From: Trichoplax sp. H2
Lineage: Eukaryota
Direction of reading: 5' to 3'
DNA length: 64,000 bases
Assembly (NCBI GenBank): GCA_003344405.1
Contig: NOWV01000012.1
Coordinates: 186,001-250,000 of the forward strand
The translations under genes and the position numbers were made by a program. Every line of letters starts with the position of its first letter. Position 1 is the first letter of the stretch. The notes beneath the pieces are model-generated. The model worked only from the letters and a program-made list of their open reading frames with translations, was not told where the DNA came from and did not search any database. Positions 5,750-62,314 of this stretch are shown piece after piece.

Positions 5750-6590
5750 TCACTACTGTACGTTTCTAGCTGCAACGTTTCCTACTGTCACAGTACTGTA
5801 AATATCCAGTACAGTACGCATAGACTACGGCACAGTACAGTACAGTACTTTACAATGTATTGTACGGTACTATAAAATTTGAAGGGTCTAATGTACAGAG
5901 TGTGATTATTTTCGATGGCACCCTGAAAACATATAATTGTACAGTATATGCTAAATCAGGCCCAAACTACGTGTATATATAAATGCTATACTATACAGGA
6001 ATTTCAACGGTATACAACTTGGATTTTTTAACGAAGGGGAGAGATCGAAAATAATCAGATTGGTACAGTCATGGTGCAATGTACTGTACACTGTAGGTAC
6101 ACAGCAGCGAAAGCGAGCGTTTGATTCTAATTCTACTAGTGCAAACTCCCGTCGCTTTGCTGACCAAGTTAAGCAGTTCAGTTCAGCTATTATAGCGTTT
6201 GTTTTTAATTCTATTTTTAGCTTAGATATTATTTTTTATTGATTTATTCTACAATACAGTACAGTAATGTAATTCTATTGTACTGTACAGTACATACTGT
6301 ACGGTGTACGGTACAGTATAATAGCCGTACTGTGCGTCAGAGCCAACCCTAATCATGTAAGCAGCTCAGTTCAACTATTGTAGGTCGAGTCAGACACTAA
6401 GCTAGCTTATAATAACACACACACACATACAGTACAGTAATTCTATTGTACTGTACAGTACATACTGTACGGTGTACGGTACAGTATAATAGCCGTACAG
6501 TACTGTGCGTCAGAGCCAACCCTAATCAAGTAAGCAGCTCAGTTCAACTATTGTAGGTCGAGTCAGACACTAAGCTAGCTTATAATAACC
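5750..6590. promoter_or_regulatory. Probable bidirectional promoter region between Ashwin and myosin VI, with ACTGT/ACAGT arrays
   Basis: Divergent gene arrangement; dense GTACTGTACAGTAC-type motifs; candidate Myo6 non-coding exon ending AAAG|GTATCT at 6708/6709 and acceptor TTTTTTGCTAG at 8662, 7 nt before the ATG. Confidence 0.5.
6255..6589. repeat. Direct tandem duplication of ~160-170 bp separated by a short (CA)n
   Basis: TCTATTGTACTGTACAGTACATACTGTACGG...GACACTAAGCTAGCTTATAATAAC occurs at ~6255-6416 and ~6428-6589 with few differences. Confidence 0.9.
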
Positions 6591-19299: not shown

Positions 19300-19760
19300 A
19301 AATACGGTACTGTACAGTACTACTGCATACTGTACAGTGTATACTGTCCCTCTTTCTTTCATTTGTAAACCTGGATTATACTTACAGTAGATCATCAAGG
19401 TATTGAACCGAACTCAGGTCTAACCTGGAAACACTAAGTAAAAATCGCTAGGTTCTACAGTACATACGGTACAGTACAAAGTACTGTGTGTCAGAAGTCT
19501 TTCTGTACACAGTACTGTACTGTACAGTACAATGCTGCACAGTACAGTACAGTACTGTACTGTAGCACTCAGCAAAACCGTAGTACTGTACAGTACTGTG
19601 TACTGTACTGTACAGTAAAGGGAATTGGAAGGGAAATACGGTACAGTACCAGATACCGTAAGTCTCTGGTCATCGTAGTTCATACGTCTGATGTCTTAAA
19701 TACTTCTACGCATGTGTAAAGAGTTCTCTTCATCGTGGTTAGAGACGGCCATTTTGTGAA
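19300..19760 (+). promoter_or_regulatory. RPL24 promoter: ACTGT/ACAGT array, polypyrimidine TCT/TOP-like start (TTCTCTTC ~19724) and YY1-like CGGCCATTTT (~19746)
   Basis: Motifs read directly upstream of the ATG at 19770; this architecture is typical of animal ribosomal protein genes. Confidence 0.55.
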
Positions 19761-24235: not shown

Positions 24236-27200
24236 TCAGCAAAGTTTATAAACACGAAGGCGTTGCAATGACTTTCTACAGTACTGTACATCGACTAAGT
24301 ACTGTACATTGTAGTCATACTGTACTGTACAGTACAGTACTTACTGTATAGTATGGTAAAGTACTGTACTGTAGTCTCATCGACACAGTACTCCCTCCAC
24401 TAGAGACCCTCCATAGTACTGTACTGTATTGTACTGTACTGTACTTTGACTATGCTATACTGGACACTGCGTATAGTATCTGTGTGTGGGTTATTTATTA
24501 AATTATCAGTGGGTATACACAAGTAACACCACTGTATCATGGACTATAGTACTAGAAGGCCTGGCCTGTATGGGCTAATCACTTCTCTTGGACGGACAGA
24601 CATTTTAGGCACATCTCGTCAAAACATTGTGCCAAACACTGGAGTTATGGCAGTACAGTACTGTAGTATGCAGACGGTCGATTTTAAATTGAACGATTTC
24701 TAAATTAAGTAATATTACATTAAATCTTATTATCTATTACAAGTTTTTGCTTGGAAACAGTTCTATAAAATCGTAGACGCTATTTAAATTAGTACCAGTG
24801 ATTAGAAAACAAACATGGAAGATCTATACTGTACTAAAGTAGTCCTTTTTGGATATTTACGGCCTCATTTGATAAGAAAAGTCCGTCAGTCTGTAACGGC
24901 CAGCCTGACAACATCTAAATGAGTCTATACTGTCTATGGAATACTGAATGTAATTCATGATCTACGAGTATACTGTGATTGTAAAAGAAAACGTGTATGG
25001 AACATAATATTGCAATATGATTTACTTGACATACAACTACTAGACTATTCTTCGCGCTAATTATAATATTCCCATATAATATAAGCGTACGAATATCTGA
25101 ATCTTCTATCTCTGATCAATTACAATATACGCTCTTCACTTATTATAATGAATTCCTTGACTATTTTTTTATTGATAAATCAGTTACTGATGATACTGTA
25201 GATAGATTTCACTTACTATAACTTCCGATTCTTCTTCGGTGAGACATTTGCTCTACAAAAGCATCCACTGTAATAACCTTTACGTAGCAATAAATTCACT
25301 GTAATCCAGTTTATACCTATAATACCATGAATAAAAATTTATCATCAACATTTGGATCTCTGTAGTACAGTATATTGTATTATCATTACGCTGTCTCTCA
25401 AAATGACAAATCAAGTAAATCAGTCATTTATGGCTAAATCACGTACAAGCAGTAACAAAAATGTAGAAAAGACAGCAAAGTTAATTGATGAATTCAATCA
25501 ATTTATCAAAATTAAATTGCAGTTGATTATGCATAAATAGTTAAATCCTAAGAATACCTTATTTTTTCTTAAATGCCAATGCCAGCGGCTCGTGGTTTTG
25601 AAAACTTTCTTTCACTTTTTCTTTAGTAACAATGTCTAATAATAATAATTGTAACGTCATCGTATGATCTTGTAGCTATATTATTGACTTTCCAGTAATC
25701 GAAAATTTCAATTCTACGTCCTAAAAAAATACAGTAACAATCTAAAAGTCACGTCAGCCTGACAATACTACTGTACTTATAAACCCTAGATATAAAAAGA
25801 AAGGAATAATTTCTAGAAACCCCTTGTTTCTCTTTTACTCAATATTGATAAAGTAATAATACTTTGTAGTACAAGTAATAATGACACCATATTACACGCG
25901 TAAAACTATAGACCTATACATCACCTACAGCCATAAACTTTGCTCGTGAGCATATCTTGTAATAATACTAAAATTTCAACGAAACAGACTGTAAAATAAA
26001 AAAAACAGTTCACCTCGGTAAATGTAACGTTCATAGATACACAGCTAAGAATCAGAAAAAAGCAATAATTACCGCTTCCTGGGTAGAATGTTTTTACTCG
26101 CATCATTTTAATAATATTTTATATTATGTACTGTATTAAGTGTATACTGTATTCTACAGTACATTTATAGGAATGTGTCATTATGTATTTAATCAGTACT
26201 AGTCATTTATTACATGTTTCTACAGTACAATTAATACGATTACTTATGCGATTGTACGATAATTCAATATTAGCTAAATATAATATCCTACAAACTTACA
26301 ATTGTTACACAGTAGTATTCAAGTATTACGACAACAGTGCATTACGCAAAGTATCACGAGCAAGGGCATTCTACTGATTTAAAATAATAATCCCTATTGA
26401 TTATTCATGATGCGGGTTACATGTATTATTTTTTACAATCTGTGCTTGGCCTAATTTACACAAATATAGATATATGGACATAACTTCATATATTAATATT
26501 CACTTATAATTCCTAATTCTATATTATAACTAGAGTATTACTATATTTATTAATTTATCCACTGTTCTACAATCCTGCTAGATAGAGATAAGAGAGGTCA
26601 TTTGATAACTTTAAAACACGATTCATAATGTACTTTATTGTTTTTTCGGTCATAGGGATGTAAGATAGCCATATAAATTTGTAAATAATCACAACGCTGC
26701 CAAATACATACGATATTACCGCTGTTAATATGTACTCTTACAATTGCTTACATCTAAAACTTTTATATCACCGGCCTATATATTAAAATTACCATTTTGT
26801 AGTATCTTCTTTTAGTATGTCAAAAAATTTTACTTTTACAATTTCTATTATAATTAAAGTGTACAAAACATTTTTACTTCTAATTACTGATCAATATCTA
26901 ATAGCAAAGATACTTATTTCAGTTGCAACTTATTAATAACAGTTTTTCAAAGGTCTAAATGTTTATTAATACAGTATAACAACGGTATACATGAAACATA
27001 TTTTATTTTATGCCTCGATGATGAAATCTATAGTATTAATTTCTTACATTAATAGGTGTTTGAGACTAGAAGAATGATAGCGAGCAATTAATCAAATATA
27101 TGGCAACAGTAGTAAATTCTAGATGTGAAAGCCGAGTTATCTATGTAAAATATGCTTAAGCTCATACTGATTAAAAATTGATATTGCAAAGTTTACTCAC

Positions 27201-30200
27201 GTTGAAACCACGCCTATAATTAACATTTTGTATAAGAACACGAGCGGATATCCATTAAATAAGTAATAATTAATTCCTGGAGTAACCCTTTCGATGAGAG
27301 TTTATATTTTACAGACTGAAGAGCACAACAAGTGATGAGAATTCCAATCATGCTTGAAATCCTATAAACCTATATGTCCAATACTCAGTGTGAAAGCAAA
27401 ATAAGAATTACTTAGCTAAAGAGTAAGAATCTATTTCTGTAAGTTAACTCTAATACCGTGTCAAGATTTACAGGATTGAAAAATAAAACGAAAAATGATT
27501 GACGATAATATTTAATCAACTAAGCTATCTGTATTAAACAATTAAAAACCTAGGCTAATAATGATTTTACGTATAATATATCTTATACTATAGTTAATTC
27601 CCATTGATTGAACTAAAATCAATGAAAGTTTACTATATAAGGATCAGCATCAGTAAATACTTTATTAGAGATATAAGCTACCAGTACCATTCTTCTATCA
27701 CGGTGCTTCATCGATAATTTGGAATGAACAAACAAGATTAATCTATGGGATTAACAAAAATGCAAAACCAGTTTGTTTCTGGATATTATTGGCTAGAATT
27801 TTGTTCATTTAATCGGAAATGCAAAAAATTTATCTATTCAAAGTATTTACCATAGCCCCTATGAGTACGAAAATCTTAATATCGCTACCAATTTCATACA
27901 AATCTATCCCGTTAGTGACAATTAAACTGTTATAAAGATGAAATTTGCGTGGTAAGTAACGAAAGATAAAAGAATTCAAATTTTGAAACTACAAATGAAA
28001 TAGAAGCAAATTAAATCGCATTCCTAATATCAACTTCAAAAAAAAATGCCTCAATGCTATCCTATAGTGCATACGAGTATGGTATATTAATTGAACCTAT
28101 CTTATTTAAATCATTTCTTGCTTTATTTTTAACTCATTCTAGCCCAGCATATAAAACTATATGCCATTAAATTGATAATATGGAATACTGTAGATGATGT
28201 ATTTCTTGCTGATCAGCAAGATTTAATTACTAGAAATCATAAAAAGAAAGTGTTCGGAAGGATCGTTGATCAATTCTATTAAAACTTTCACATAAAATGA
28301 TCATAAAAAAGCATAAAATTTTCTGTTATGATTAAATTAAGTTATTAATTATTTTTAGACATTGCTCTTATGGTATTGATACATAAGCTTAATTGACAAA
28401 AAAATACTATTTTTAAAAGTCATCGATAACAAACTTTCTTTTATTCTATAGATAAGAAAGACATTTAAACCTCTTCAAGATCTACTTGCATACAGAAAGT
28501 ATTTAAGGCTTAAAGTTTTCCATAATGATGGAATCAATAGATCTTATCAATTTTTTAAATAATGCCAAGAAAATATTCTAGAACCTTAGTCGAATTAAAC
28601 AATAGTAACTTTTAAAATTTAAATGTAAGTATAGATGTTTTTCCTACCTATTAGTTGGATTCTGCGTCTCATTAATTGAATATCTAGCTAGTACATCAAT
28701 CAATATATAATAGTAAAGGTAATAAACGTTATTAAACTCTTTTGGTTATAAGGAAATAAAAAAATATCAAGAATATCTCAACTAATACTGTAATTAAATT
28801 CATTTTGATTCAATCTATTCATTATCTTATAGTTATTCCTGCTCTTAATTTGTAAGCAAATAAAATACTGCCTATTTAGCTAACGCCCCAATAAATGTAG
28901 ACGATGTCTTATTATCGATTTGTCTCTATCTCTTTGTAGAAGTTATTTACATGGCTCAGTTCGTTCATATGCTGAATGAAAGTTCAGGGGTAAATCATAT
29001 TAATTACTATCCATCAATCTTACCGAATCTATAGCACAATTACGATCATTTACAATCACTCAATTTATATTTTATTTTAATAAATTACATTTAAATATCA
29101 ATTTTGATCGTTAATATAAGGCTTGCAATAAAGTTTATCTTTCATCTATCCACAGTCGTCTTCTATTCCTTCTCTCTATGTACCTTACATAAAAAGGCAA
29201 TGGAACAACAGCAGTCGGAGTTATTGCAATATCATTGTCTCAGAACTTAATCAATGAAGAAGAAAATACAATAATCCTATTTGATATAGGACCATTATTT
29301 GAGGACGATAATATTGCCATGGTAGAGTATTCATTCAAAGAGAAGGAATATTAAAAAATTAAATTGTCGAAAAGAAAAAATGTCAGTCACGAAATTAATC
29401 TATATCATCTACTAATTAGTCCAGTGTAATAGAGAATTAAAAATAAATAAGACAGGACAAACAGTAAGAAATATAAAGACATTAGTACTTAAATCATGTT
29501 TTTTCTTCCAATGTAGTTTTAATTAACATGACGTCTCTAACATCCTGCGCCAATTGATTTCCATTACAATGATGACGTTGTCAAGGCCATATTACAACTT
29601 ATTTGCTATGGCTACGCGAGAAATAATGCTAGACTATCATAACCATTAAATATTGATTAACTCTCCCTAACGCATTGTTGTTAAATCTGATTTCCAAAAA
29701 TCAAGTCGCAGTGTTAACACTTCCCTTATATTTACCCTCGAACTCTTCACATCGCAAAATACAATGACTTTTTAATCGTTTTCATGAAGTGACTACAAAC
29801 GATTTTACATTCAAGATAACCATACTGCCATCAAATATACAGTATCTTTTTTATGTTGGTATTTATTCGGGCCGCTTCAGGACGAAGAAGTATCTTTATC
29901 CTAGTCAGCATAACTCTACAATTGAGTAATATTCTATTTGGTGGATACTAATCAAATTTTATGATCTCGATTTCATGCCAACCTAAGTGGAACAAATCAT
30001 TTTTCACTCTTCCTTCTCATCATTATCAACTAAGAATTATACATATATATATACCACTTTCGTTGGGTATGCAAGTTTACCAATGATATTGAGTTTATAC
30101 CAACACAAGTAAAACAAATTATTGCCAAAATTCTTTCAATTCTTCCAATTTGTTATCATTAACTAAGAATCTTCTTATTAATCTCAGCAAAAAAAAGTTC

Positions 30201-30391
30201 TAATTTACCCAAGACAACGCGTTTATCATCATTGAAAACAGAAGTACTATCATTTTTTATCAAAATACTTTTGTACGTCTTAGTATAAAAATTGATTATT
30301 ATAACTTAAACACTACAATAATATAAATTATAAAGGAGATTAAAAAAAATTCCGTCATCAAAAGTTTCAGCTATGAATAACAGCCCAATAT

Positions 30392-32989
30392 TTGACCAAT
30401 CTGATAATAATTACTTTTATCTACTTGGCTCTGATAATGCCCTCTATTCGACACATGGCTGATGGAAGCCAGGGTAAATCTTACGCATTTAAAGATGGAG
30501 ATATCATTCTTGGTGGGTTATTTCCAATTCATGAATTTCTATCTGATCAAAATTGCGGTAATATAAGAGAAACAGAAATTTCATTACAATTAATGCATGC
30601 CATGATCTACGCTGTTCAATCTATTAATAACAGAAAGGATCTATTACCAGGTATACAGTTAGGATTTCAAATTCGCGATTCCTGTTCTCGTGACACCATT
30701 GCATTAAAAGAATCTCTACTAATGCTAACTCGCCCTGATTCTAATTTCAATACCAGCCTCGCTAGTCAGTATAAGATATTACCAAGTTGTGCTAACAATA
30801 ATTCACGAAAATATAATAATGCTTCACAAAAACGCATTGTTGGCGTTATCGGACCGGGCAGTAGTCGTGAATCAGTTCTTGTTTCTGATTTATTAAATAT
30901 CTTTCGTATACCACAAATCAGTTACAGTTCGACTAGTGATGACTTGAGTGAGAAAGAGAGATATAAATATTTCCTTCGTACTGTTCCTCGTGATTATCTA
31001 CAAGTCCGTGCAATGATTGATCTATGCTTACACTATAATTGGTCTTATGTTCAATTCGTCTATTCTGAAGGCAGTTATGGTGAAAATGGATTTAAAAATT
31101 TTCGTTCACAAATTACTACTCTCAATCTATGTATCGCTGCTGAATATGAACTAGCTCAATCGGCGCCTACACATCGCTACGATACAGTAATGAGTAGTAT
31201 ACTTAGCAAAAGTAATAAGGCTAAAGTTGTAATTTTATTCTGTAATTGGGGCGAAATGGCAAAATTATTTGAAGCTGCCGATCGTGCTAATGCTGCTGGT
31301 AGGATAATATTTATAGGTAGTGACGATTGGACTACTAATACTTATTATATGAATAGTAGTAATTATGTCGCAGAAGGATCTCTTTATTTTCAACTTCATG
31401 GCGAGTATGTTAGAGATTTCGATCGTTATTTTACTCAATTAACGCCGTATAATGTGGATCGAATACAAGATCCATGGTTTAACGAATCTTGGCAAGCTAA
31501 TTTCAATTGCAATCTTCCACCAGCGACAGAAAATATATGTGACAAAAGTTTACGATGGACTAATGTAACGGGTGGATTTACTCAAGGTCGTAAAATAATT
31601 TATGTTATTAATGGTGTGTATGCATATGCACATGCTCTTCATAATATGCATAAAGAATTATGTAAAGGAAAATCAGGTTTATGTTCAGCAATGCAATCGA
31701 TTGATGGTCATTTATTATTCAAGTATTTGTTGAGAGTAAGTTTCATGGATATTGCTAACAGCAGTCGTGTAGAATTCGATAATCAAGGAGATATTAAAAA
31801 TGGGGGTTACGATATTGACAATTTACAAAAAGTAAATAAAAGTTACATTTCAAGAATAGTTGGTATATGGTTGTCAGATGATTTATCATTAAGAAAAGAT
31901 ACAATTCAATGGTCAATTGGTAATTCAAGTCATATTTTAGAATCGGAATGTAGTCAGCCATGTCAGGAAGGACTATTTAAGATTATTAAGGAAGAAATTT
32001 GCTGTTGGGTGTGTACTAGCTGCATTAGCAAGCAGTATTTTAATTATAGTTTAAGTCAATGCGTTGACTGCCCTATAAATTACTGGCCGCATCCTAACCG
32101 AACATTTTGTATTCCAGTTGATATAACTCATATCAATCTCCGTGATGGTATTTCCGTCATTTTAATCATTTTCAGCATTATTGGGATGACATTTGTTGCC
32201 TACCTCTTTTATGTTTATCGAAAATTTAACAACCACCCCACAATCAAAGCATCAGGACGAGAGCTATGCTACTGTATCATGTGTAGTTCTATCGTTATCT
32301 CCATTAATTGTATAACCCCTATTCCAAAACCAACTATTTCTCTATGTGTTTGGTATCGTGTAGCGACTGGTTTAAGCTTTTCGTTATGCTATGGCTCATT
32401 ATTAGTTAAGACAACTCGAATCTATCGCATTTTTCGTCATAGCAAACAGAGCCTAAAAAGGCCATCCTTTACCAGTCCAAAATCGCAAATTTTGTTCGTG
32501 TCGACAATTGTAATTATACGCTTACTCGTTGTTATTACTTGGGTAGGATTAGAACCTCCTGCAATCCAGCGTGAATACTACGATTATGGCAAAGAAATTC
32601 ACTTAAAGTGTAAGCATGCAACAACAGATATGATCATATCAACCTCTATTGATGGCACCTTGATTGTTTTATGTACTGTATTTGCATTCTTAACTCGACA
32701 TCTTCCTGAAAATTATAATGAAGCGAGATTTATCAATTTCTCGATGTTTGCCGTTATTATCGTTTGGTTGGCATTTATTTCGGCTTATTTTACATTTAAA
32801 GTTAATTTACAACCAGTCATGCTTGCCATTACTGGTTATATTTCGGTTATGGCAACCTTACTATTTGTTTTTGTACCTAAATTATATGAAATATTCATTA
32901 ACAAGAAGACTAGCATGGCTCCTAATAATTCCGTCGTCGAGCGTGCAGCTGCAGCCGCAGCTACTGCAGGTAATATGATTATTGCATGA
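30392..32989 (+). CDS. Class C GPCR, metabotropic glutamate receptor-like (GPCR-A), single long exon; start codon unresolved
   Basis: GDIILGGLFPIH, GPGSS, PQISYSSTS, FLRTVPRD, Cys-rich domain, 7TM with KASGRELCY, KTTRIYRIF, LPENYNEARFI, FVPKLY. No in-frame ATG before the signal-like segment (ORF opens at TTG 30392). Confidence 0.93.
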   Translation: MTNLIIITFIYLALIMPSIRHMADGSQGKSYAFKDGDIILGGLFPIHEFLSDQNCGNIRETEISLQLMHAMIYAVQSINNRKDLLPGIQLGFQIRDSCSRDTIALKESLLMLTRPDSNFNTSLASQYKILPSCANNNSRKYNNASQKRIVGVIGPGSSRESVLVSDLLNIFRIPQISYSSTSDDLSEKERYKYFLRTVPRDYLQVRAMIDLCLHYNWSYVQFVYSEGSYGENGFKNFRSQITTLNLCIAAEYELAQSAPTHRYDTVMSSILSKSNKAKVVILFCNWGEMAKLFEAADRANAAGRIIFIGSDDWTTNTYYMNSSNYVAEGSLYFQLHGEYVRDFDRYFTQLTPYNVDRIQDPWFNESWQANFNCNLPPATENICDKSLRWTNVTGGFTQGRKIIYVINGVYAYAHALHNMHKELCKGKSGLCSAMQSIDGHLLFKYLLRVSFMDIANSSRVEFDNQGDIKNGGYDIDNLQKVNKSYISRIVGIWLSDDLSLRKDTIQWSIGNSSHILESECSQPCQEGLFKIIKEEICCWVCTSCISKQYFNYSLSQCVDCPINYWPHPNRTFCIPVDITHINLRDGISVILIIFSIIGMTFVAYLFYVYRKFNNHPTIKASGRELCYCIMCSSIVISINCITPIPKPTISLCVWYRVATGLSFSLCYGSLLVKTTRIYRIFRHSKQSLKRPSFTSPKSQILFVSTIVIIRLLVVITWVGLEPPAIQREYYDYGKEIHLKCKHATTDMIISTSIDGTLIVLCTVFAFLTRHLPENYNEARFINFSMFAVIIVWLAFISAYFTFKVNLQPVMLAITGYISVMATLLFVFVPKLYEIFINKKTSMAPNNSVVERAAAAAATAGNMIIA
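30860..31788. repeat. Left arm of ~0.93-kb inverted repeat (partner ~40719-41647); apparently identical core 30926-31734 / 41581-40773
   Basis: Manual comparison with the reverse complement found no differences in the core, including synonymous sites, and only a few substitutions at the edges. Confidence 0.92.
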
Positions 32990-35900
32990 TCTATTACTAC
33001 CTTTATTCATTAAGGACTTACGAAGAATGAATTAGTAATCATCTAACTGATGACAATTGAATTTAAGTATAAATTCTATGATTGATCAATAATAATTGTT
33101 CATTGCTTTCGCCTAACGGACAATACATTTCAGTTCTTCGGTATTATCATCCGTCGTTAATTTTGCTATAAAATTCGATAGCGCTCCATTTAATTTAGCT
33201 TGTAGTTCATATATAACTTCAATACATTATATGGTACATTATAGCAAGTTAAGTAGATACTAATTTAGCTACTCGTTAATCGTTCTTTGTCACGATGCAT
33301 TGAAAGGATGTACCATTAGCAAGGGAAATTTGATAAATCTGCATGTCATGCTACTATATTAATTATAATAGTCATAGTAAATATAAAATCCTTTCTTCAG
33401 TGTAGTATCATGTAATCAATACCAGTTTTACAATCTAAAATTTATTGTGTTATTCACAATACCGCGTCTAACTATAACGGATAGCTAGTTATATTAATTG
33501 CAATCAGGCTATAATCTTAGATACAGCAGAATATAAATCAAGTAACCAATTGTTATAATGATTTTATCATTCCTTAATTTATCCATATCACCATTTGTTG
33601 GTACATACTAGCCATAATGCACAATCCTAAGACGTTATTTCAACAGCGTCCAAAGTTAGTAACACGAACTACAATTAACTTAGAGCAGTAATACTTACCA
33701 TCTTCTAATACCTAGAAATTATCTCATAGACGTAGGGTAATTAATCGAATAGAATCGATAACCTCCATGAATTAGTATTTTGTAATAGTTCATCAATTTA
33801 ACATTCAAGATGATTACAGTCGACCTATTTCTCTCCGTAGGTTACATAATTTAATTTATTCAGGTTAAAGATTGGTAGGCGATATTATCTACTAATAATT
33901 GATCATCTACTTGTACCATATCAACTACAATCTAGATAAAATTTATAACAACTTTATATCAGAATATACATACAACACAAATTACCTGCATTATACCACG
34001 TATGATTCATTTTAAACACAGCACATAAGCGTTTGTAAGTTTTTGATCAACTACCTTTGCCTCCATTTAATATCTACTGTCGGGATCCAACAAACGTAAT
34101 GAAAATTAATTAAATAAGTTTAAATTTTGGCTGAAATAATGTAACAGTTAGCTTTATATCTTTCCTTTTGAATTGCTAATATTAGAAATATTAGTATTTT
34201 ATTTTATCTTATATTTATTCAACAGTCGGAAATACTACAACAGTAGGCTGAGACATGAGGCATTACACCCTAACTACGCACTTTTAGTATTTCATGGATA
34301 AGTTAGCCAATAGAGTACAGTACGCAAAAATATAGTTTATAATAATGCCAATAAAAGTAATTCCAGTATTAAAAGAATCACTCAATTTTTACTCTTTACC
34401 GTATCATGAAAAATAACCTAATAATGAACTACTACGTCGTTCTTAGATATAAAGTTTGTGATTTTTAATACAACTGTGTCTTCTAATAAGTTTAGTAATA
34501 AATACGTGACCAAATACCCTTTTATTCACAAAAAAGATCCTACATATCAGTTATAATTTATTACATATTCAATACGTGAGATATATCATTAAATACAATT
34601 TAAATTATACAACGTAAGATCACTAATTTATGTCTCTTGAAAAATTTTCAGTCCTCGCTCAAGGAGAAATAGAATGCTATGAATCAGTGCCATAATTACA
34701 TACTGATATGAAATGCTATCTAATAAATATTCGCTGTCCCGCCATCTTCAGAAAATACACAATACAATGCTGTCTTCACATATAGTTTACTAGATTCTTA
34801 AAGGGACTCCTACGTACTGATAGCCTATGGGAATGATCATCCATTATGAATTCTACTTCTCTTCCAAGACTAATAAATTTCTATCAACATTCGAATGAAG
34901 CATTCATAGCTGCACTGACTAAAACCTTTTGTAATCATTTTAAGCTGTAAATACTAGGCGGAAAAAGTTTGTATTAAGCCTCAATTCTTTATATTGATTT
35001 ATAACTGTATTATAAATATCGTATATCGTTCGATCCTGCCATTATGTAAGAACTGAATGTAATAATAATATTTTAATTAGTAATAACACTGAACCCCGTT
35101 TGACTCGGTTTTTCTAGAAAGAGAGTGTTGAATAATTCACATTCACTACGTACTACAGTGATGAATGATAATATAATTTAAAGATAGCCATTGAACTACA
35201 TAAAGAAATAGTCTTAAGTAAATTTTTTCGGTGCTAATTATATATATACATATACTTGGTTCTATTTTGATGGTCTTGAAGTAAATAATAAGGCCAAATT
35301 CTATAAAGAATGATAAATGTCTCTTGACTACTATGTAATATCAGCTATGGAATACTTTGTATTCGTTGTAACTTAACAAAGACTTTTGTGTAAATCGACT
35401 TATGTAGTGAAGAATTTTCTTCTATATTGATGCATCAATTCTCTACTATTTTTCTGAATTATATAATTATTCATAACAATGAATAAAATTACTCTAAAAC
35501 TTAAGGTCAAAGTTCATTTCCTCAACGATTCTAATAATGTGCAATTAGATTAAATATTAGTAACAATCAAATTATTTTAACTTGCTTTCAAAAACTGTAA
35601 TCGAAATCAAGAACCGTATACTGTATGTGCAACCTAGAATACTAAGCTCTATTAGCATTGAGAATTTCAATCACCATTATTGATCTGATGCTGTAATGGC
35701 CAACCGTAGATCTACTCGATATTATCTCGGGATAGAAAATTTAATAAGTTTAAAATTCTTACAAAATGTTGAATTTACTTACATCTATTTATACAACTTG
35801 TATTACTGAATACCAACACTCAATAAAATCAACCAACCGAAATCGTCCTAGACATCGTAGCATTTGAAGATTACAGTAAAGTTATGAGGGCTAATCAAGA

Positions 35901-38900
35901 TCAACTAGGTTACTCTGGCTATTCTATTTTAAATTCTCCATAAAGACTGTTACTAAAATTCAACTACGCAAAGATTCCTGGTGAAATCCTGACTTTATCA
36001 GCAAAGTAACAATAGTACTAAGGATTTATAACCACATTCCTTCAAATATATAAACGCGTAAAAATTAGAGCTATTCCAATTAATCTAGATCGACCAAGAT
36101 AGCCTACTCTACTGTGAAATTTGCAGCTTTGAATTTTGTTCTTAGAATTTCTCTATGTAAATGTGTAAAATGATTGTATGTAGTCTAGAAATATAACAAT
36201 ATAAAGGTCGGATCTAATCTATCAGAATAAGCTAATTTTTAATTCAATCATCTCTCTAGCAAATCTACTATTCAATCATTCAATGTCTTAAAGCTCTACT
36301 TTTTTGTGCAGTGCTATGGCCGGGCCCGTACTGTCAACAAATCCAACAGTAGAGTATTACGTATCTACTAGTAAGAAATTAGAGAACATGACAAAATTGG
36401 AAAGATATTAATCCACGACTAAGTCAACTATGTCCTAAGAATTTGTATCCTACTACATCGTAATTAATCCTCAAATATCATGAAGTTGTGTAAAAATTCT
36501 TTTACTGTAAATGCTAGCACGGTCACTAAGATGCGGTTAAGAATTTACGTCCTAGTAGTTCGTGATTTATAAATTTCATTAACTTATGTAGGAAATCTTT
36601 TACCGCAAATGCTGGCTAAGTCACTCAAAAATTTATGGGATTTAGCTTAGTTAGACAGAAATAATTCAATTTCATATGCTCTAGTGACTTATCGCCTTAT
36701 CACACTCTTTCTTCTGGCATACTTAAGTCAAAGTGTACAACTTTATTAGCTTATACTGTACTATGCATTCATCACCACATAGATATTAATTGTCAGTGTC
36801 ATAATTAGGCCTACCGGGGATAGAATCTAGTATATAAACCAGTACCGTAAATGCCCTAATGCGCAGTCAGTATGCGACATAATAAATACTTCAGACGTGA
36901 ATGTTGCAAAATAAAAAATAAAGGAAATAAGGCAATATATTGAATTTGATTATTTCTCTAACAAATATTGATATCATACAATGAATAACCACTTAAATTC
37001 CTCTACCTTTTCACGATTACAGTATATGGCTAATAAAATACAATATTAGAATGAATCAACACCATCTTAAGAAGCGTGTGCACTTACGTATTAATAGTTT
37101 ACCAAACGCAATATAGGTGCGCGAAAGCTTCTATCATGAGTACTCATATTATAGCTCAGAAAAGTTTACATCAAGATCTACAAAATCAGGCATTAAATAG
37201 TTACATCATTAAAGCGAAAAATGAGATTTAAGCTGTTAGCAAACTGGGTCAAAAACTTAATTATCAACTCAAAATTTGCTATGATTTAAAGACAAGAATT
37301 ATTAGGGTTTTGGAAAACATCTAATGAACGTTCTATAGTGCATTATAGTACTAAATTCAATATCTTAAAAAATGTTTTTGATAATGTATCGTAGCTAATA
37401 TTCACAGAAATATCAGAAAAAATTGACTGATGGCGATTAATTTTCCTTCTCTTATTAAATTGTAAGGATTAAGTAAGGGCGTTGTCGTATTTATTCATAT
37501 TCATATATATTTAGTAAATGTATAATCGGCATTTTTTTATCTTCCTATTGCGATTATCAATAACGTGTAACACAGCAGCATAGTTGCCATACTTATATTT
37601 GTTAATGACAGATTGCTAATAAGGTCTGACGTAATATTCAATCTTTAGAATTAATTAATTATTACGCTAAGTTAAAATAGTTGTTTTGCAGCAGAATTGA
37701 ATATTTAAATACTAATCATTAGTGATTTAAGTTTAATGCACAAACATCGGTGCATGCCATATCTATTTAACTGCTCCCTTATCGAAACGTAATCTTTAAT
37801 TATATATTTTTATAATAGTTTGATTTGTATATTGAAAAATTTTCTGATCTATCTCCAAAAATAGCTAATTCTGATCAATCTTTTAAACTTTATTTAATTT
37901 TTTATTGATACACTCACACGTACAATTTGAGCTATACAAGCCTTAACGGTAAGGCAATATAAGTCATATAATCAAATTGCTATAGAATGATATTTTAGAA
38001 TATTCCAAAGCTAAATGCTAGTGTTCTTTTGCCCAGTAACAAATAAATATGTTCTATAAATAGAATAGTGAGTATAAACCGATTACAGATCTGATGAAGA
38101 AATCATATCTCATTTATATTTTACAAGTATCATAAAGTGAAAAACAAATCATAACAAATAGTTTATTAATTTCAATACATAACATGTAATCAAACTGGGC
38201 AGTTCAATACTAATAAAAACTGTTATTTAGAGATAAAGAATTGAAATGACAGAAAGCAATCATAATCTTTGCACTAATAATACCGTAATAGCAACGTGGT
38301 ACTTGAAATTTAATTTAACCTGTATTATTTGAAGACAGTCCAACAATTTTACTATAAATCCTATCGTGTTGGCAATCATTTATAAATAAGTAATTTTTCT
38401 CAAATTTACGGTTAAATAAAATAAAAATAAATAGTTCCGCTCCTGTCTATATATATGTTACTATATATATAGAGTATACATGCGCACATAAATACCGTAC
38501 CGTACAAATTTATTTATTCAATCGTCTCATACAGTATGCGCTCATGTGAAATATACATTCTGTTATAAAATATTCTCTTGAGAGTACTTATTCCATCTAT
38601 AATATCACGATCTGTTGGCCTATTAAATGTTCTAGAAGTTAATTTAGTTCTACAACAAACGGCATAAGTCATGACTGGATTTTAAATCAAAATAATACGC
38701 GTACTTAGATAATCAAACGATTACTGGAGCGACTGCTAGAATGGTGGTCATATTGAAATTGGATCAGTACCTTTAATAAATCCTACAATTACATTTATGT
38801 AGTAGTCCAAGTCATATCATGAATACATGACACATGCATTACACAATTTTAGTTTAAATACTATATGTAAATTTTAATATCGGTATACTTGTGATACTCG

Positions 38901-39505
38901 AAACTGCTAGATTTTAAGCTCAATTATTATTATACATAGATTTTTATAAATGCTTAAAATTCTTGCATTACCTAAATCTTTAATATTTGAACCATTTCCA
39001 GTTGACGAATCGATGTGATGATCATTATAAAAGCTTAGTTGCCTACAAGACTAAAATTTTAACCAGATTTCAAAATACCCTTAATACATTAACGCATATG
39101 TGCAGTTATTTTCCTTAATAAGATATATCACAAACGTGATTTATCTCAATAACAAGCTATCCCTAATCAGTAACATGATAACAATAGCAGGTATGGAATC
39201 AATATTTGGTTACTACAGAATATATCAACCTCCAATCAATCTCACACCGTATAATAACAGTAAAAGTAACATTTATTTTATCGAACTTGTCTTATACTGC
39301 ACCACTAACAGTCAAGTTGTTTAATTAGTATTGGCATATATGGTAGCCAATAATTAATGCCGATAATATGTATTTATATCGATCATTTTTAAAAGATTGC
39401 GCCTGATTTTCCTTTAAGGATCGCAAAATAATTGTAATTCTTATTTACAACAAGTTCATAAGATGAAAATATTTGTAAATTCGGAGGAATTAATACTTTT
39501 AAAAT

Positions 39506-42127
39506 TTAATGGCCCCCTAGAAATAAATTTCCGCTAGATAATGTAGCCGTTGGTGCTGGTTTAATTGCAAGATTATTTGACATCCCATGAACGTTTCCAT
39601 TGCTGAAACCAAATATACGTAATAACTTGGGCACAAATAAAAATAATATGGTTACCGTTACAGAAATATAATCAGCAATAGGGATAATCAAAGGTCGCAA
39701 TCTGGGATCACTTGTAAAGTAGGCTGGAATAAAAGCTAGCCATACAATCATGACTGCAAACATGGAGAAATTAATAAATTTGGCTTCATTAAAATTTTCC
39801 GGCAAATGACGAGTTAAAAATGCAAATACAGTGCAAACAATGATTAAACAACTGTCAGCACCTAATGTAATCACCATTCCAACGACAGATTCATTACATA
39901 TTAATCTTATTTCTTCGCCATGCTTATATTCTACGCGACGCACTCCAGGTGGTTCTATAATAATCCAAACAAGTACAATTAACAATCGTAAAGCCACAAT
40001 GGTAGCTACCATAAATAGTTGTGATCTAGGGCTAATAAGGGATGGACGTTTTAATGTTGCATTATTATGATTAAAGATTCGATAAATTCGTGTCGTTTTA
40101 ACAAATATAGCACCATAGCATAAAGAAAAGCTAAACCCTATTGAGATTCGAAACCATATGCATATTGGCATATTCGGTCTCCATAGTGGTACTACGCAGT
40201 TAGTACAAATGATACCAAAGCTAAACATAATGCAATAGCAGAGCTCACGTCCTGAAGCTTTAATTATAGGATGAAGATTAAATTTAACGTAGATAATTAC
40301 CAACGAGATTAAAAATGCTCCACCCATTCCAGCGAAGATAATTACGGTAATTGCAATTGCCTCTTCGGCTTCCATATGGGTTATATTGACTCTATTACAT
40401 GCTGTTCTATTTTGTTGCGGCCAATAACCCGCTGGACAGTCAATACACTGGCTCAGAGTATAATTGAAATACTGTTTGCTAATACATTCAGCACATACCC
40501 AACAACAAATTTCTTCTTTAGTAATTTTAAATAGTCCTTCCTGACATGGCTGACTACATTCCGATTCTAAAATATGACTCGAATTACCAATCGGCCAATA
40601 AATATCGTCTTCGCTTAATAATAAATCTTCTAACATCCACACACCAACTTTTTGAGATCGATAATTATCACTTTTCCGTTGCAAGTTATCAATATCGTAA
40701 CCTCCCTCCCTGATATCCCCTTGATTATCGAATTCTACATGACTGCTGTTAGCAATATCCATGAAACTTACCCTCAACAAATACTTGAATAATAAATGAC
40801 CATCAATCGATTGCATTGCTGAACATAAACCTGATTTTCCTTTACATAATTCTTTATGCATATTATGAAGAGCATGTGCATATGCATACACACCATTAAT
40901 AACATAAATTATTTTACGACCTTGAGTAAATCCACCCGTTACATTAGTCCATCGTAAACTTTTGTCACATATATTTTCTGTCGCTGGTGGAAGATTGCAA
41001 TTGAAATTAGCTTGCCAAGATTCGTTAAACCATGGATCTTGTATTCGATCCACATTATACGGCGTTAATTGAGTAAAATAACGATCGAAATCTCTAACAT
41101 ACTCGCCATGAAGTTGAAAATAAAGAGATCCTTCTGCGACATAATTACTACTATTCATATAATAAGTATTAGTAGTCCAATCGTCACTACCTATAAATAT
41201 TATCCTACCAGCAGCATTAGCACGATCGGCAGCTTCAAATAATTTTGCCATTTCGCCCCAATTACAGAATAAAATTACAACTTTAGCCTTATTACTTTTG
41301 CTAAGTATACTACTCATTACTGTATCGTAGCGATGTGTAGGCGCCGATTGAGCTAGTTCATATTCAGCAGCGATACATAGATTGAGAGTAGTAATTTGTG
41401 AACGAAAATTTTTAAATCCATTTTCACCATAACTGCCTTCAGAATAGACGAATTGAACATAAGACCAATTATAGTGTAAGCATAGATCAATCATTGCACG
41501 GACTTGTAGATAATCACGAGGAACAGTACGAAGGAAATATTTATATCTCTCTTTCTCACTCAAGTCATCACTAGTCGAACTATAGCTGATTTGTGGTATA
41601 CGAAAGATATTCAATAAATCAGAAACAAGAACTGATTCACGACTACTACCAGGTCCAATTAATCCAATAATTTGTTGGCGTTGAAAACGTTCATCAATTT
41701 CAGGTTGTGAGTCATTAGCACATCTTGGCAGATTACGATACTGATCTAAAAAATTACCCACCGAGTCACGTCCATTAGGAGTTAACATTAAGATCGATTC
41801 CCTTAATGCGATGGTATCCCTTGAGCAGGTGTCATGTATATGGAAGCCTAACTTAATACCAGGTAATAAATCTTCTCTGTTGTTTATGCGTTGAATAGCG
41901 TAGATCATGGCATGCATTAACTGTAATGATATCTCAGTCTCTCGTATTTGGCCACAACTTTGATTTGAACTGCTAAATTGATGGATTGGAAATAATCCAC
42001 CAATAATAATATCACCAGGTTGATAGCCGTAGGCTCTATTATCAGATAAACTGTCATTACTTTGAACCAGGATCGACGTAATTAAGATGAAATAATGTAG
42101 TGATATATAGCTTAATAGATGTAACAT
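39506..42127 (-). CDS. Class C GPCR, metabotropic glutamate receptor-like (GPCR-B), single exon, ~873 aa from ATG 42127
   Basis: Signal peptide MLHLLSYISLHYFILITSILVQS; same VFT/CRD/7TM motifs as GPCR-A; convergent paralogue. Confidence 0.95.
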   Translation of the reverse strand: MLHLLSYISLHYFILITSILVQSNDSLSDNRAYGYQPGDIIIGGLFPIHQFSSSNQSCGQIRETEISLQLMHAMIYAIQRINNREDLLPGIKLGFHIHDTCSRDTIALRESILMLTPNGRDSVGNFLDQYRNLPRCANDSQPEIDERFQRQQIIGLIGPGSSRESVLVSDLLNIFRIPQISYSSTSDDLSEKERYKYFLRTVPRDYLQVRAMIDLCLHYNWSYVQFVYSEGSYGENGFKNFRSQITTLNLCIAAEYELAQSAPTHRYDTVMSSILSKSNKAKVVILFCNWGEMAKLFEAADRANAAGRIIFIGSDDWTTNTYYMNSSNYVAEGSLYFQLHGEYVRDFDRYFTQLTPYNVDRIQDPWFNESWQANFNCNLPPATENICDKSLRWTNVTGGFTQGRKIIYVINGVYAYAHALHNMHKELCKGKSGLCSAMQSIDGHLLFKYLLRVSFMDIANSSHVEFDNQGDIREGGYDIDNLQRKSDNYRSQKVGVWMLEDLLLSEDDIYWPIGNSSHILESECSQPCQEGLFKITKEEICCWVCAECISKQYFNYTLSQCIDCPAGYWPQQNRTACNRVNITHMEAEEAIAITVIIFAGMGGAFLISLVIIYVKFNLHPIIKASGRELCYCIMFSFGIICTNCVVPLWRPNMPICIWFRISIGFSFSLCYGAIFVKTTRIYRIFNHNNATLKRPSLISPRSQLFMVATIVALRLLIVLVWIIIEPPGVRRVEYKHGEEIRLICNESVVGMVITLGADSCLIIVCTVFAFLTRHLPENFNEAKFINFSMFAVMIVWLAFIPAYFTSDPRLRPLIIPIADYISVTVTILFLFVPKLLRIFGFSNGNVHGMSNNLAIKPAPTATLSSGNLFLGGH
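40719..41647. repeat. Right arm of the inverted repeat shared with GPCR-A
   Basis: Reverse complement of ~30860-31788. Confidence 0.92.
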
Positions 42128-50669: not shown

Positions 50670-50830
50670 GAGTACAGTACGGTACCGTACAGTGACATGT
50701 ATCGTAAGACAAGTACTATACACTGTAAAGTACAGACTGTGCACTGTACTGTACAGTACAGTACTGTAGCGAAGGACAAGTACAGTACTATACTGTACTG
50801 TGCTGTACACAAGTTAGTAACTGTACCAGA
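50670..50830. promoter_or_regulatory. ACTGT/ACAGT array upstream of MBTPS2
   Basis: Dense GTACTGTACAGTACAGTACTGTA run ~200-370 bp upstream of the ATG at 51042. Confidence 0.5.
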
Positions 50831-60841: not shown

Positions 60842-61377
60842 TGCTGACTGAGACTCGAGCACGTATGGCGTGGTTGCTGGCACGGAGTAAAAATCACTCG
60901 CTCTGACTGCTTTTTTTTTACAGCCTAGCGCATGAATACAGCGATTGTGATGGGTATGAAGGTGTTGAAGAGAGCGATCACATGGAGTTATGTCATGATC
61001 CGGCGGTTTGCAACTTTGTACCATTTGTATAGCCTACCGATGGTGGCAGTATAGGCATGCGCAAACTACAAGACGTTTTGGTTCTGCTTGAAAGAGCAGG
61101 GGGAAAACTATTAAATTGTGCGAGTGCATTCTCCCTTCCTATACACTCTCGTGACAGTATTTGTTGTGACGCATTTTTACTGCACTGTGCCTAGCGGCTG
61201 AGACACAGTACTGTACTCTACTCTACAGTCTACAGTACACCATCTACAGGAGTCGATGCGTCAAGTACTGTAACCCTAGGCCCAAGATGCACCATGGACT
61301 ACTTGTACAGACATGGACGCTTTCTCGCTAGCAAGGAGTCGCTTGTCCGCCTTACTCTCATTTTCAACTTCCTATAA

Positions 61378-61870
61378 AGGGACGCCTATCGCTCCAAGAT
61401 ACTACTTTTTGGATGCCACTTTCCTAATCATACGTTTACTGCCATAAAACTCAAATATAGAGTTTCATAAGGTAACGGCGCAACTCTGACGCATTAATCA
61501 TCACCATACCAACTCTTTCTCCTTCTTAAGCAGTCGCCGTCGCCTTTCCCTCATCTTAATTAAACTCCATATTAATAGGGACACCTATCGCTCCAAGATA
61601 CTACTTTTTGGATGCCACTTTCCTAATCATACGTTTACTGCCATAAAACTCAAATATAGAGTTTCATAAGGTAACGGCGCAACTCTGACGCATTAATCAT
61701 CACCATACCAACTCTTTCTCCTTCTTAAGCAGTCGCCGTCGCCTTTCCCTCATCTTAATTAAACTCCATATTAATAGGGACACCTATCGCTCCAAGATAC
61801 TTTTTTATCCAACTTTCGTAATCATACGTTCACTGCCACCATAAAATTCAAACATACAATTTCATAAAGG
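61378..61870. repeat. Tandem repeat, ~199-bp unit, ~2.5 copies
   Basis: AGGGAC(G/A)CCTATCGCTCCAAGATA starts at 61378, 61577 and 61776; first two copies nearly identical, third diverged and truncated. Confidence 0.92.
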
Positions 61871-62314
61871 AAACGTATGGATTATATACAGTACAACGAG
61901 CGTCAGTTGTAGTGAACGAGGGGTCTACTAGGACAGCATTCTACTGTATATTTCAGGGGAATTATGGATGGTTGGATTCCCCTGATTTTCTTGGGGGGGC
62001 TACAGCTCGTACTAAAAGCTGTTAAAACCGCAATATTTCACTTTCTAAATGGCATAAGGGAAGTAAAATTTTTAATTGTAACAGTTTTACATTAAGCATA
62101 GAGAAGAATACAATAATTGCTGTACTGTACAGTGTAGACTGGACACTCACAGTAAAACTGTTTACTGTGCAAGTTCGTATACGAGTATTCGCGTATATGT
62201 AGTACAGCATATACAGTACTATAAGTAAAAGCTGATGTCTACACGAGTCTACACGAAAGTGCCAGGATTCTTTAAATCTTACCAATTGATTGCCTATATT
62301 TATAGGCGGCAGTA

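Follow-up and report, generated by a model that had tools for sequence, protein, structure and literature searches.

Switches driven by invertases, such as the R64 shufflon (Rci and its sfx sites), Hin and Gin, combine short sites with a dedicated adjacent recombinase. An arrangement of this type had been proposed, in a first-pass annotation made from the letters alone, for a stretch of 64,000 nucleotides (nt) from Trichoplax sp. H2 (contig NOWV01000012.1, positions 186,001 to 250,000 of the forward strand), which was analysed here as a whole and is called the window. In it, two metabotropic glutamate receptor (mGluR)-like genes, A and B, lie tail to tail and share a long identical tract in inverted orientation, which covers most of their Venus flytrap (VFT) domain. 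The resemblance to a shufflon is that an inversion between the A and B tracts would join one 5' half to the alternative 3' half in frame; the difference is that neither short sites nor an adjacent recombinase were found at this locus. We consider it likely that the two genes stay identical over about 930 bp of VFT-coding DNA through recurrent and very recent interlocus gene conversion in cis.

Conversion between adjacent inverted paralogues has been reviewed for Caenorhabditis, as the available part of PMC3966223 indicates. According to the accessible sections of PMC5701461 and PMC3210942, SIGLEC11 and SIGLEC16 are adjacent inverted paralogues about 9 kb apart with conversion restricted to the ligand-binding part and diverging signalling parts, and the homogenised ligand-binding domains of such paired receptors are termed 'merohomogenization' in the second of these sources. 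However, the SIGLEC genes lie head to head, encode mammalian immune receptors whose opposite signals are proven, and have undergone conversion repeatedly in many species, whereas A and B form a tail-to-tail pair of class C receptors of the G protein-coupled kind (GPCRs) known from sequence, with both copies taken from one lineage. Human RHD and RHCE are also tail-to-tail paralogues in which conversion produces hybrid alleles, and a rare inversion-recombination allele is described in the accessible part of PMC12962860. These two genes are more than 90% alike throughout and lie 30 kb apart, whereas the nucleotide identity of A and B is about 60-65% in the N-terminal and 7TM (seven-transmembrane) parts around one sharply bounded tract.

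No report of the A/B tract appeared among the literature matches listed, from a search that mostly lay outside subscription literature. The main texts of PMC6307864 and PMC10133484 contain neither 'conversion' nor 'inversion', and the shared tract, the probable start of A and its 3' intron were not found in the accessible material of either paper. In the available part of a preprint on placozoan GPCRs (10.1101/2025.04.18.649542), no passage mentions 'class C'. The A/B tract is apparently an undescribed case of a known process, interlocus conversion.

An identical tract between diverged ends

Two long open reading frames (ORFs) converge in the window, A at 30437-32989 (+ strand, 850 amino acids, aa) and B at 39506-42127 (- strand, 873 aa). 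They lie on opposite strands facing each other, as the first-pass annotation had described, and both proteins (2/2) score above the Pfam cut-offs for the VFT domain (PF01094), the nine-cysteine domain (PF07562) and the 7TM domain (PF00003), the domains of class C receptors. The 5' flanks of the two genes show no homology to each other. The main features of the locus are the following.

30373-32969, + strand: exon 1 of gene A, coding for leader, VFT, cysteine-rich domain (CRD) and 7TM (from ORF, Pfam and the frame of the upstream ATG; ortholog TRIADDRAFT_11098)
39506-42127, - strand: gene B, mGluR I-II-III-IV alpha_Tad, TriadT25549, a single ORF of 873 aa (from ORF, Pfam and matching N-terminus)
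30860-31788, + strand: 929-bp homogenised tract of A (about codons 142-451, the larger part of the VFT), with a core at 30926-31734 equal to B (from alignment and a shared contig in 4/4 runs)
40719-41647, - strand: homogenised tract in B, with its core at 40773-41581 (from alignment and contigs)
31789-40718, no strand: segment between the tracts, 8,930 bp, with both 7TM halves, the intron and last exon of A, and spacer (from geometry; no inversion observed)
31928-31980, + strand: second identical run, 53 bp long, where the CRD begins, partner 40527-40579 (from alignment; own double-depth contig in run X3)

Positions 30926-31734 (+) and 41581-40773 (-) are identical at 809/809 bases, inside a 2.4-kb inverted homology of 80% and in a window without N. 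The two copies are in register, with A position plus B position equal to 72507 from 30831 to 32133. Synonymous differences were counted on the codon alignment at those codons that have the same amino acid in A and B. They amount to 35/72 in the N-terminal part (A 1-131), 7/28 at the 5' edge (A 132-163), 0/257 in the core (A 164-432), 27/90 in the hinge and CRD (A 433-560) and 81/146 in the 7TM and tail (A 561-850). The core differs sharply from the N-terminal part plus 7TM (0/257 vs 116/218; Fisher p = 7e-50). Both the 809-bp identity and the divergence of the N-terminal part, 7TM and C-tail, silent sites included, were thereby confirmed as the first-pass annotation had given them. At the protein level, 315 of the 316 residues at A 138-453 are the same in B, and only 145 of 260 in the 7TM. 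The tract is bounded 5' by a variable loop with an indel and 3' by the hinge between VFT and CRD.

The longest identical A/B runs after the core measure 53, 35, 31 and 26 bp, and the first of them, at 31928-31980, probably dates from an earlier conversion. In a DNA search of the genome, the shared tract was placed at the A and B loci only. Based on the strongest 7tm_3 matches of the genome, 35 class C ORFs of at least 550 aa were kept, a sample in which intron-rich members of the family are not included; among their 595 pairs an identical run longer than 26 nt occurred only in A/B and in one near-whole-gene duplicate. GC-biased conversion was considered and set aside, as third positions in the tract are poorer in GC (0.21) than those outside it (0.26-0.30) and give no such signal.

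We looked for both copies of the tract in Logan contigs, which collapse isolated differences, from four public runs of four studies (among 24 runs listed). X3, X5 and X7 are DNA runs; X14 is an RNA run by the guess of the tool, supported by a splice. Contigs were aligned to 29000-35500, which covers gene A only. Each of the four runs gave a single shared 929-nt contig at 30860-31788. In the three DNA runs the depth of this contig was about twice that of its flanks (132 vs 62-69, 73 vs 32-36 and 45 vs 22-28), and therefore two real copies of the tract exist. Three of the four runs have no alternative letter in the core, and X7 has one synonymous change, at 31177. The contigs of all runs break at the tract and so carry no phase across it. 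Depths in X14 were 5.5 for the A 5' part, 19.3 for the shared contig, 8.9-9.5 for A 3' and 12.7 for B 3'; their use as a phase test was dropped, since depth is one noisy figure per contig.

The few mismatches at the edges of the core bear on how far the tract extends. These and the single variant inside it are as follows.

30895-30925, + strand: 5' edge variants 30895, 30922 and 30925, all synonymous, in three haplotypes: window A, window B and recombinant (from window bases and contigs)
31177, + strand: C>T in X7's two-copy contig, synonymous, the sole alternative letter in the 809-bp core across four runs (from contig letters)
31735-31767, + strand: 3' edge variants 31735 (synonymous) and 31767 (Arg444/His) (from reference protein, contig ends and letter counts)

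At the 5' edge, three of the four runs (X3, X5 and X14) combine the B base at 30895 with the A bases at 30922 and 30925, within 31 nt, a recombinant haplotype that matches neither window copy. At the 3' edge, site 31767 codes for Arg in A and His in B of the window, and for His in both proteins of the T. adhaerens reference. With only 21 identical bases beyond this site, a fixed A/B difference there would end the shared contig at 31766; yet the shared contig ends at 31788 in 4/4 runs, beyond the site. In X3, X7 and X14 all other letters of the shared contig are accounted for elsewhere, which leaves the Arg base at 31767, and the B-type path of X14 begins in the overlap with the shared contig. 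In X5 one unlisted difference lies in the overlap, in the shared and the A-type contig alike, which fits His. Judging from the contig overlaps (B with Arg, and A with His in X5), both states of 31767 seem to occur on both 3' halves, and in A as well as in B the edge variants seem to segregate. The core identity reported in the first-pass annotation thus stands, while the mismatches at the tract edges, here placed at 30895, 30922, 30925, 31735 and 31767, are at least partly allelic; the effective tract is therefore 929 bp, 30860-31788 and 41647-40719.

The ends of the two genes have a different history from the tract. As outgroup we used P0002, an ENA protein taken to come from another placozoan. 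Outside the tract it is 72% identical to B vs 59% to A N-terminally, and 69% vs 55% in the 7TM. Informative sites group it with B rather than A at 23:6 in the N-terminal part and at 54:16 in the 7TM. At either end of the gene the divergent copy is A, and the outgroup protein is like B there. Within the tract the outgroup is 84% identical to both, and A equals B against the outgroup at 51 sites vs 1. The tract is also the best-conserved part of the protein, with 84% identity to the outgroup vs 69-76% elsewhere (B). Tree support for B plus outgroup was 0.69 in the N-terminal part and 0.43 in CRD-7TM, and either the duplication predates the species split or A evolved faster. In either case, the comparison indicates that homogenisation of the tract came long after divergence of the ends. 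That the outgroup gene was assembled whole across the tract was considered as a hint that it has no identical second copy; this was too weak and was left unused.

Probable conversion and alternative explanations

Ectopic conversion of most of the VFT, the more conservative of the two readings in the first-pass annotation, is borne out by the synonymous contrast, the two copies and the mosaic ancestry, and it looks recurrent and very recent. A and B would be old inverted duplicates of a placozoan mGluR gene. We infer that one copy is probably repaired by homology from the other, 9 kb away, through fold-back or sister-strand pairing, and that this repair would have been resolved without crossover, repeatedly. 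Conversion would persist where purifying selection kept the copies alike, and would halt at the variable loop with its indel before the tract and at the VFT-CRD hinge after it. The predicted outcome is two transcribed receptors that have one pocket but do not share promoter, leader, N-terminal lobe segment, 7TM domain or tail. The tract may simply be the most conserved part of the protein, which makes a neutral account of the homogenisation possible beside selection for a shared pocket. That selection maintains the two genes as paired receptors, one pocket serving two outputs, is a tentative proposal and less likely than not.

Identity of the two tracts could also arise without any exchange between them. 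Purifying selection alone, or a very recent duplication of the whole gene with fast-diverging ends, would agree with the strong conservation of the tract in the protein. Selection at the protein level does not, however, keep 257/257 synonymous codons identical while 116/218 differ nearby; about 50 residues common to A and B differ from the outgroup in the tract, the flanks have no homology, and such an origin is virtually untenable. An assembly artefact, in which two distinct tracts received one consensus or one copy was written twice, is suggested by the merging of alleles nearby (a surplus base at 30384-30389, see below) and by the collapse of single differences in contigs. The first-pass annotation had named a consensus artefact as a caveat. 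Tested by copy number, it conflicts with the doubled depth in 3/3 DNA runs from different studies, and also with the lack of an alternative core letter in three of the four runs (one in the fourth) and with reference proteins that are identical over the tract, which makes it very improbable.

The remaining alternatives involve inversion. The geometry described in the first-pass annotation holds: the tracts are in frame and in register, and a crossover in them is predicted to invert 31789-40718 and leave two intact alternative reading frames. Ligand specificity would not be exchanged by the flip, as A and B have the same pocket residues; by the arrangement of the genes the flip would swap promoters, leaders and about 160 N-terminal residues, and would rewire expression rather than specificity. 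Conversion with occasional crossover, in which an inverted allele segregates in some lineages as a passive polymorphism that places the promoter and N-terminus of A on the 7TM of B and the reverse, draws on the inverted, in-frame, in-register 929-bp tracts, on the recombination that evidently occurs between the copies and on the inversion-recombination allele of RHD/RHCE (PMC12962860, in the part available). Against it, the window and the T. adhaerens reference are in the same phase (2/2 assemblies, whose full independence is not demonstrable), and the B-like outgroup with A divergent at both ends fits a long stable linkage; we think it unlikely. The stronger statement that tract recombination sometimes resolves as a crossover in living Trichoplax, with clonal animals or wild lineages carrying both orientations of the 8.9-kb segment, is doubtful to a slightly greater degree. 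If it were true, crossover flips would swap promoter and N-terminus between differently coupled 7TM domains, a reversible rewiring of amino-acid signalling without neurons. For an active switch of receptor modules, with the 8.9-kb segment flipping often, somatically or between clonal generations, and changing the pairing of promoter and 7TM, there is the geometry only, in which both products are intact genes, and the presence of both copies in RNA run X14. No recombinase family was found in the 50 scanned of the 60 shorter window ORFs of at least 72 aa, and the genome-wide search, which covered tyrosine but not serine recombinases, gave PF00589 matches on contigs C62 and C629 alone. Beyond the homology of the paralogues there are no short exact inverted sites, only arms of 20-36 nt that are 72-85% complementary. 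Moreover, inversion alone would not place both states of 31767 on both 3' halves, only two states would be possible, with an unchanged pocket, and similar mosaicism is seen in a pair seemingly in direct orientation. Together with the single phase of the two assemblies and the outgroup that is B-like at both ends, these observations leave the shufflon-like switch without support, and we regard it as quite improbable.

The two PF00589 matches, C62:162-644 and C629:6393-6875, have equal scores and are unusual for an animal; they possibly come from symbiont or mobile-element DNA.

Several points weigh against recurrent, very recent conversion as we have described it. The weak tree support leaves the age of the duplication unfixed. 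No A-type ortholog from another placozoan was found that could attest independent homogenisation in a second lineage, only a B-like outgroup cluster: there was none among the 120 listed of 199 near-length matches, none among 101 shorter matches (all at most 45% identical) and none in the 80 kept of 87 metagenome loci, where only three 51-residue pieces, at 57%, exceeded 50% identity. The accessible mGluR sheet of PMC10133484 has no Hoilungia row. A few hidden differences inside the tract are possible, with contigs collapsing isolated ones. The reading of shared variants is drawn from contig ends and letter counts, not raw reads, and 31767 is a CpG transition that could have mutated twice. Finally, conversion and crossover share one intermediate, so conversion itself would allow an occasional inversion.

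Receptor class, ligand pocket and gene models

A and B are the published placozoan mGluR I-II-III-IV beta (A) and alpha (B) of Ramos-Vicente et al. 2018. In the accessible portion of PMC6307864, TriadT11098 is listed as mGluR I-II-III-IV beta_Tad in the supplement and TriadT25549 as alpha_Tad, with an alignment row that starts like B. PMC10133484, as far as available, lists both genes with adjacent identifiers (TriadITZ_005103/005104) as putative mGluR 1 and 2, the two mGluR-type receptors among 34 mGluR-like genes in Trichoplax. TRIADDRAFT_11098 of the T. adhaerens reference equals A over 807 residues apart from Arg444His. Protein B has an exact match on two contigs, one of which (8,573,113 nt) is taken as carrying TRIADDRAFT_11098.

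In unrooted FastTree trees, A, B and P0002 form a clade with six bilaterian mGluR matches (support 1.0 for the tract and 0.999 for CRD-7TM), and the other 33 long class C ORFs of the sample all fall outside this clade. Two duplicate ORF rows were dropped from the trees, and five rows with more than 40% gaps were excluded from the N-terminal tree. In comparison with mGlu3 and other matches, the backbone-binding Ser, Thr, Asp, Tyr and Asp, which we take to be S165, T188, D208, Y236 and D318 in mGlu1 numbering, are all kept in A, B and the outgroup, and all five lie inside the 929-bp tract. The Lys409 position is also within the tract and is kept in the three proteins. Upstream of the tract, the Arg78 position (window 30566-30604) is Leu in all three, which is half of the class IV signature. 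Arg78 and Lys409 bind the distal carboxylate of glutamate, and their loss hampers glutamate binding, according to the part of PMC6307864 available; with Leu at the Arg78 position, the ligand may not be glutamate. Class IV mGluRs, of the Drosophila mXR type, resemble A and B in the retained backbone residues and the replaced Arg78 as described in that same portion of PMC6307864. The difference is that class IV replaces both Arg78 and Lys409, whereas A and B keep Lys409 and form a separate placozoan class. From these residues, the ligand of A and B is probably an L-alpha-amino acid, not necessarily glutamate. The Leu lowers the expectation that they bind glutamate, not their membership of the mGluR family. 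The pocket motifs and residues are identical in A and B, and the two receptors, which differ in their signalling halves, probably sense the same molecule.

Both genes had been described as intronless. In the genomic sequence, B is a single ORF, which has no GT at the place equivalent to the intron of A and is followed by a spacer with no detectable homology to the last exon of A. The description does not hold for A, in which an RNA contig of X14 skips 1682 nt. The corrected features of A are these.

30384-30389, + strand: one surplus assembly base, which puts ATG 30373 out of frame (base absent in X3 at position 30384, in X5 and X7 at position 30389)
32970-34651, + strand: intron of gene A, 1682 nt, GT..AG, phase 1 (from the X14 joint 32966-34649, cut +3, and the splice sites)
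34652-35458, + strand: last exon of A, which adds 14 residues and a stop (up to 34695) and continues as 3' UTR at least as far as 35458 (from the X14 contig)

The ATG at 30373 lies 64 nt upstream of ATG 30437 and is one base out of frame in the window, where an in-frame hydrophobic stretch precedes ATG 30437. All three DNA runs lack one base of 30384-30389, which brings ATG 30373 and a hydrophobic leader into frame. The window probably merges two alleles here, with the surplus base as an assembly error, and the true start of A is probably ATG 30373, with a normal leader; the public model of A in the supplement of PMC6307864, in the part available, has no signal peptide. Thus the model of gene A needs a new start and a new last exon. 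X14 also contains the B-type continuation after the tract, and hence both genes appear to be transcribed. A hairpin RNA formed by read-through across the inverted tracts was considered as well, but the RNA cover of A, followed as far as 35500, gave no evidence for it. At 32974, the +5 position of the splice donor of A, X3 and X7 carry a T>G variant that may alter intron retention and hence the C-terminus of A.

Between 4519 and 62908 the pair is flanked, based on Pfam, by Ashwin-like, Exo70-like, myosin VI, RPL24, CCDC28, peptidase M50 (site-2-protease-like) and eIF2-gamma genes. Elsewhere in the window there are local direct repeats at 61317-61875 (period about 195 nt, 89%) and 6260-6589 (period about 168 nt, 95%), and self-complementary low-complexity tracts that match one another at 19456-19620, 24318-24374 and 50722-50803.

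Other class C pairs and meaning for placozoan signalling

A second mosaic class C pair was observed in the same genome (L036, C404:1-4000, and L020, C513:13001-17559), with 3 differences in 897 nt followed N-terminally by 204 over 1047 nt. The pair is apparently in direct orientation and could be partly allelic; if its mosaicism arose in direct orientation, inverted geometry is probably not required. The two ends of C404 (L013, C404:41500-43030) carry the same 710-nt 7TM stretch letter for letter, and the end of C513 has it with one difference. The copy at the start of C404 carries an insertion of about 1.33 kb (711-2043), and the C404 and C513 stretches run to the contig ends. Two further ORFs, L030 (C185, from 183252, - strand) and L034 (C595, from 2437, - strand), share an identical run of 2051 nt and represent a very recent duplicate or an unmerged allele.

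The homogenised tract has practical consequences. Trees of the whole proteins misdate the A/B duplication, and short reads, single-cell counts and probes placed in the tract cannot tell A from B. No other Trichoplax receptors are as close to neuronal mGluRs as A and B, and feeding-like cycles in this animal are set off by glutamate, as reported in the accessible part of PMC10133484. The change from Arg78 to Leu is a warning that the ligand of A and B may not be glutamate. Should the pocket be common to both receptors, with 7TM, promoter and tail distinct, a single ligand could produce two outputs or act in two cell types. In the case of one pocket and two outputs, the homogenisation of ligand domains would reach beyond the immune receptors of mammals, to a class C GPCR of an early-branching animal.

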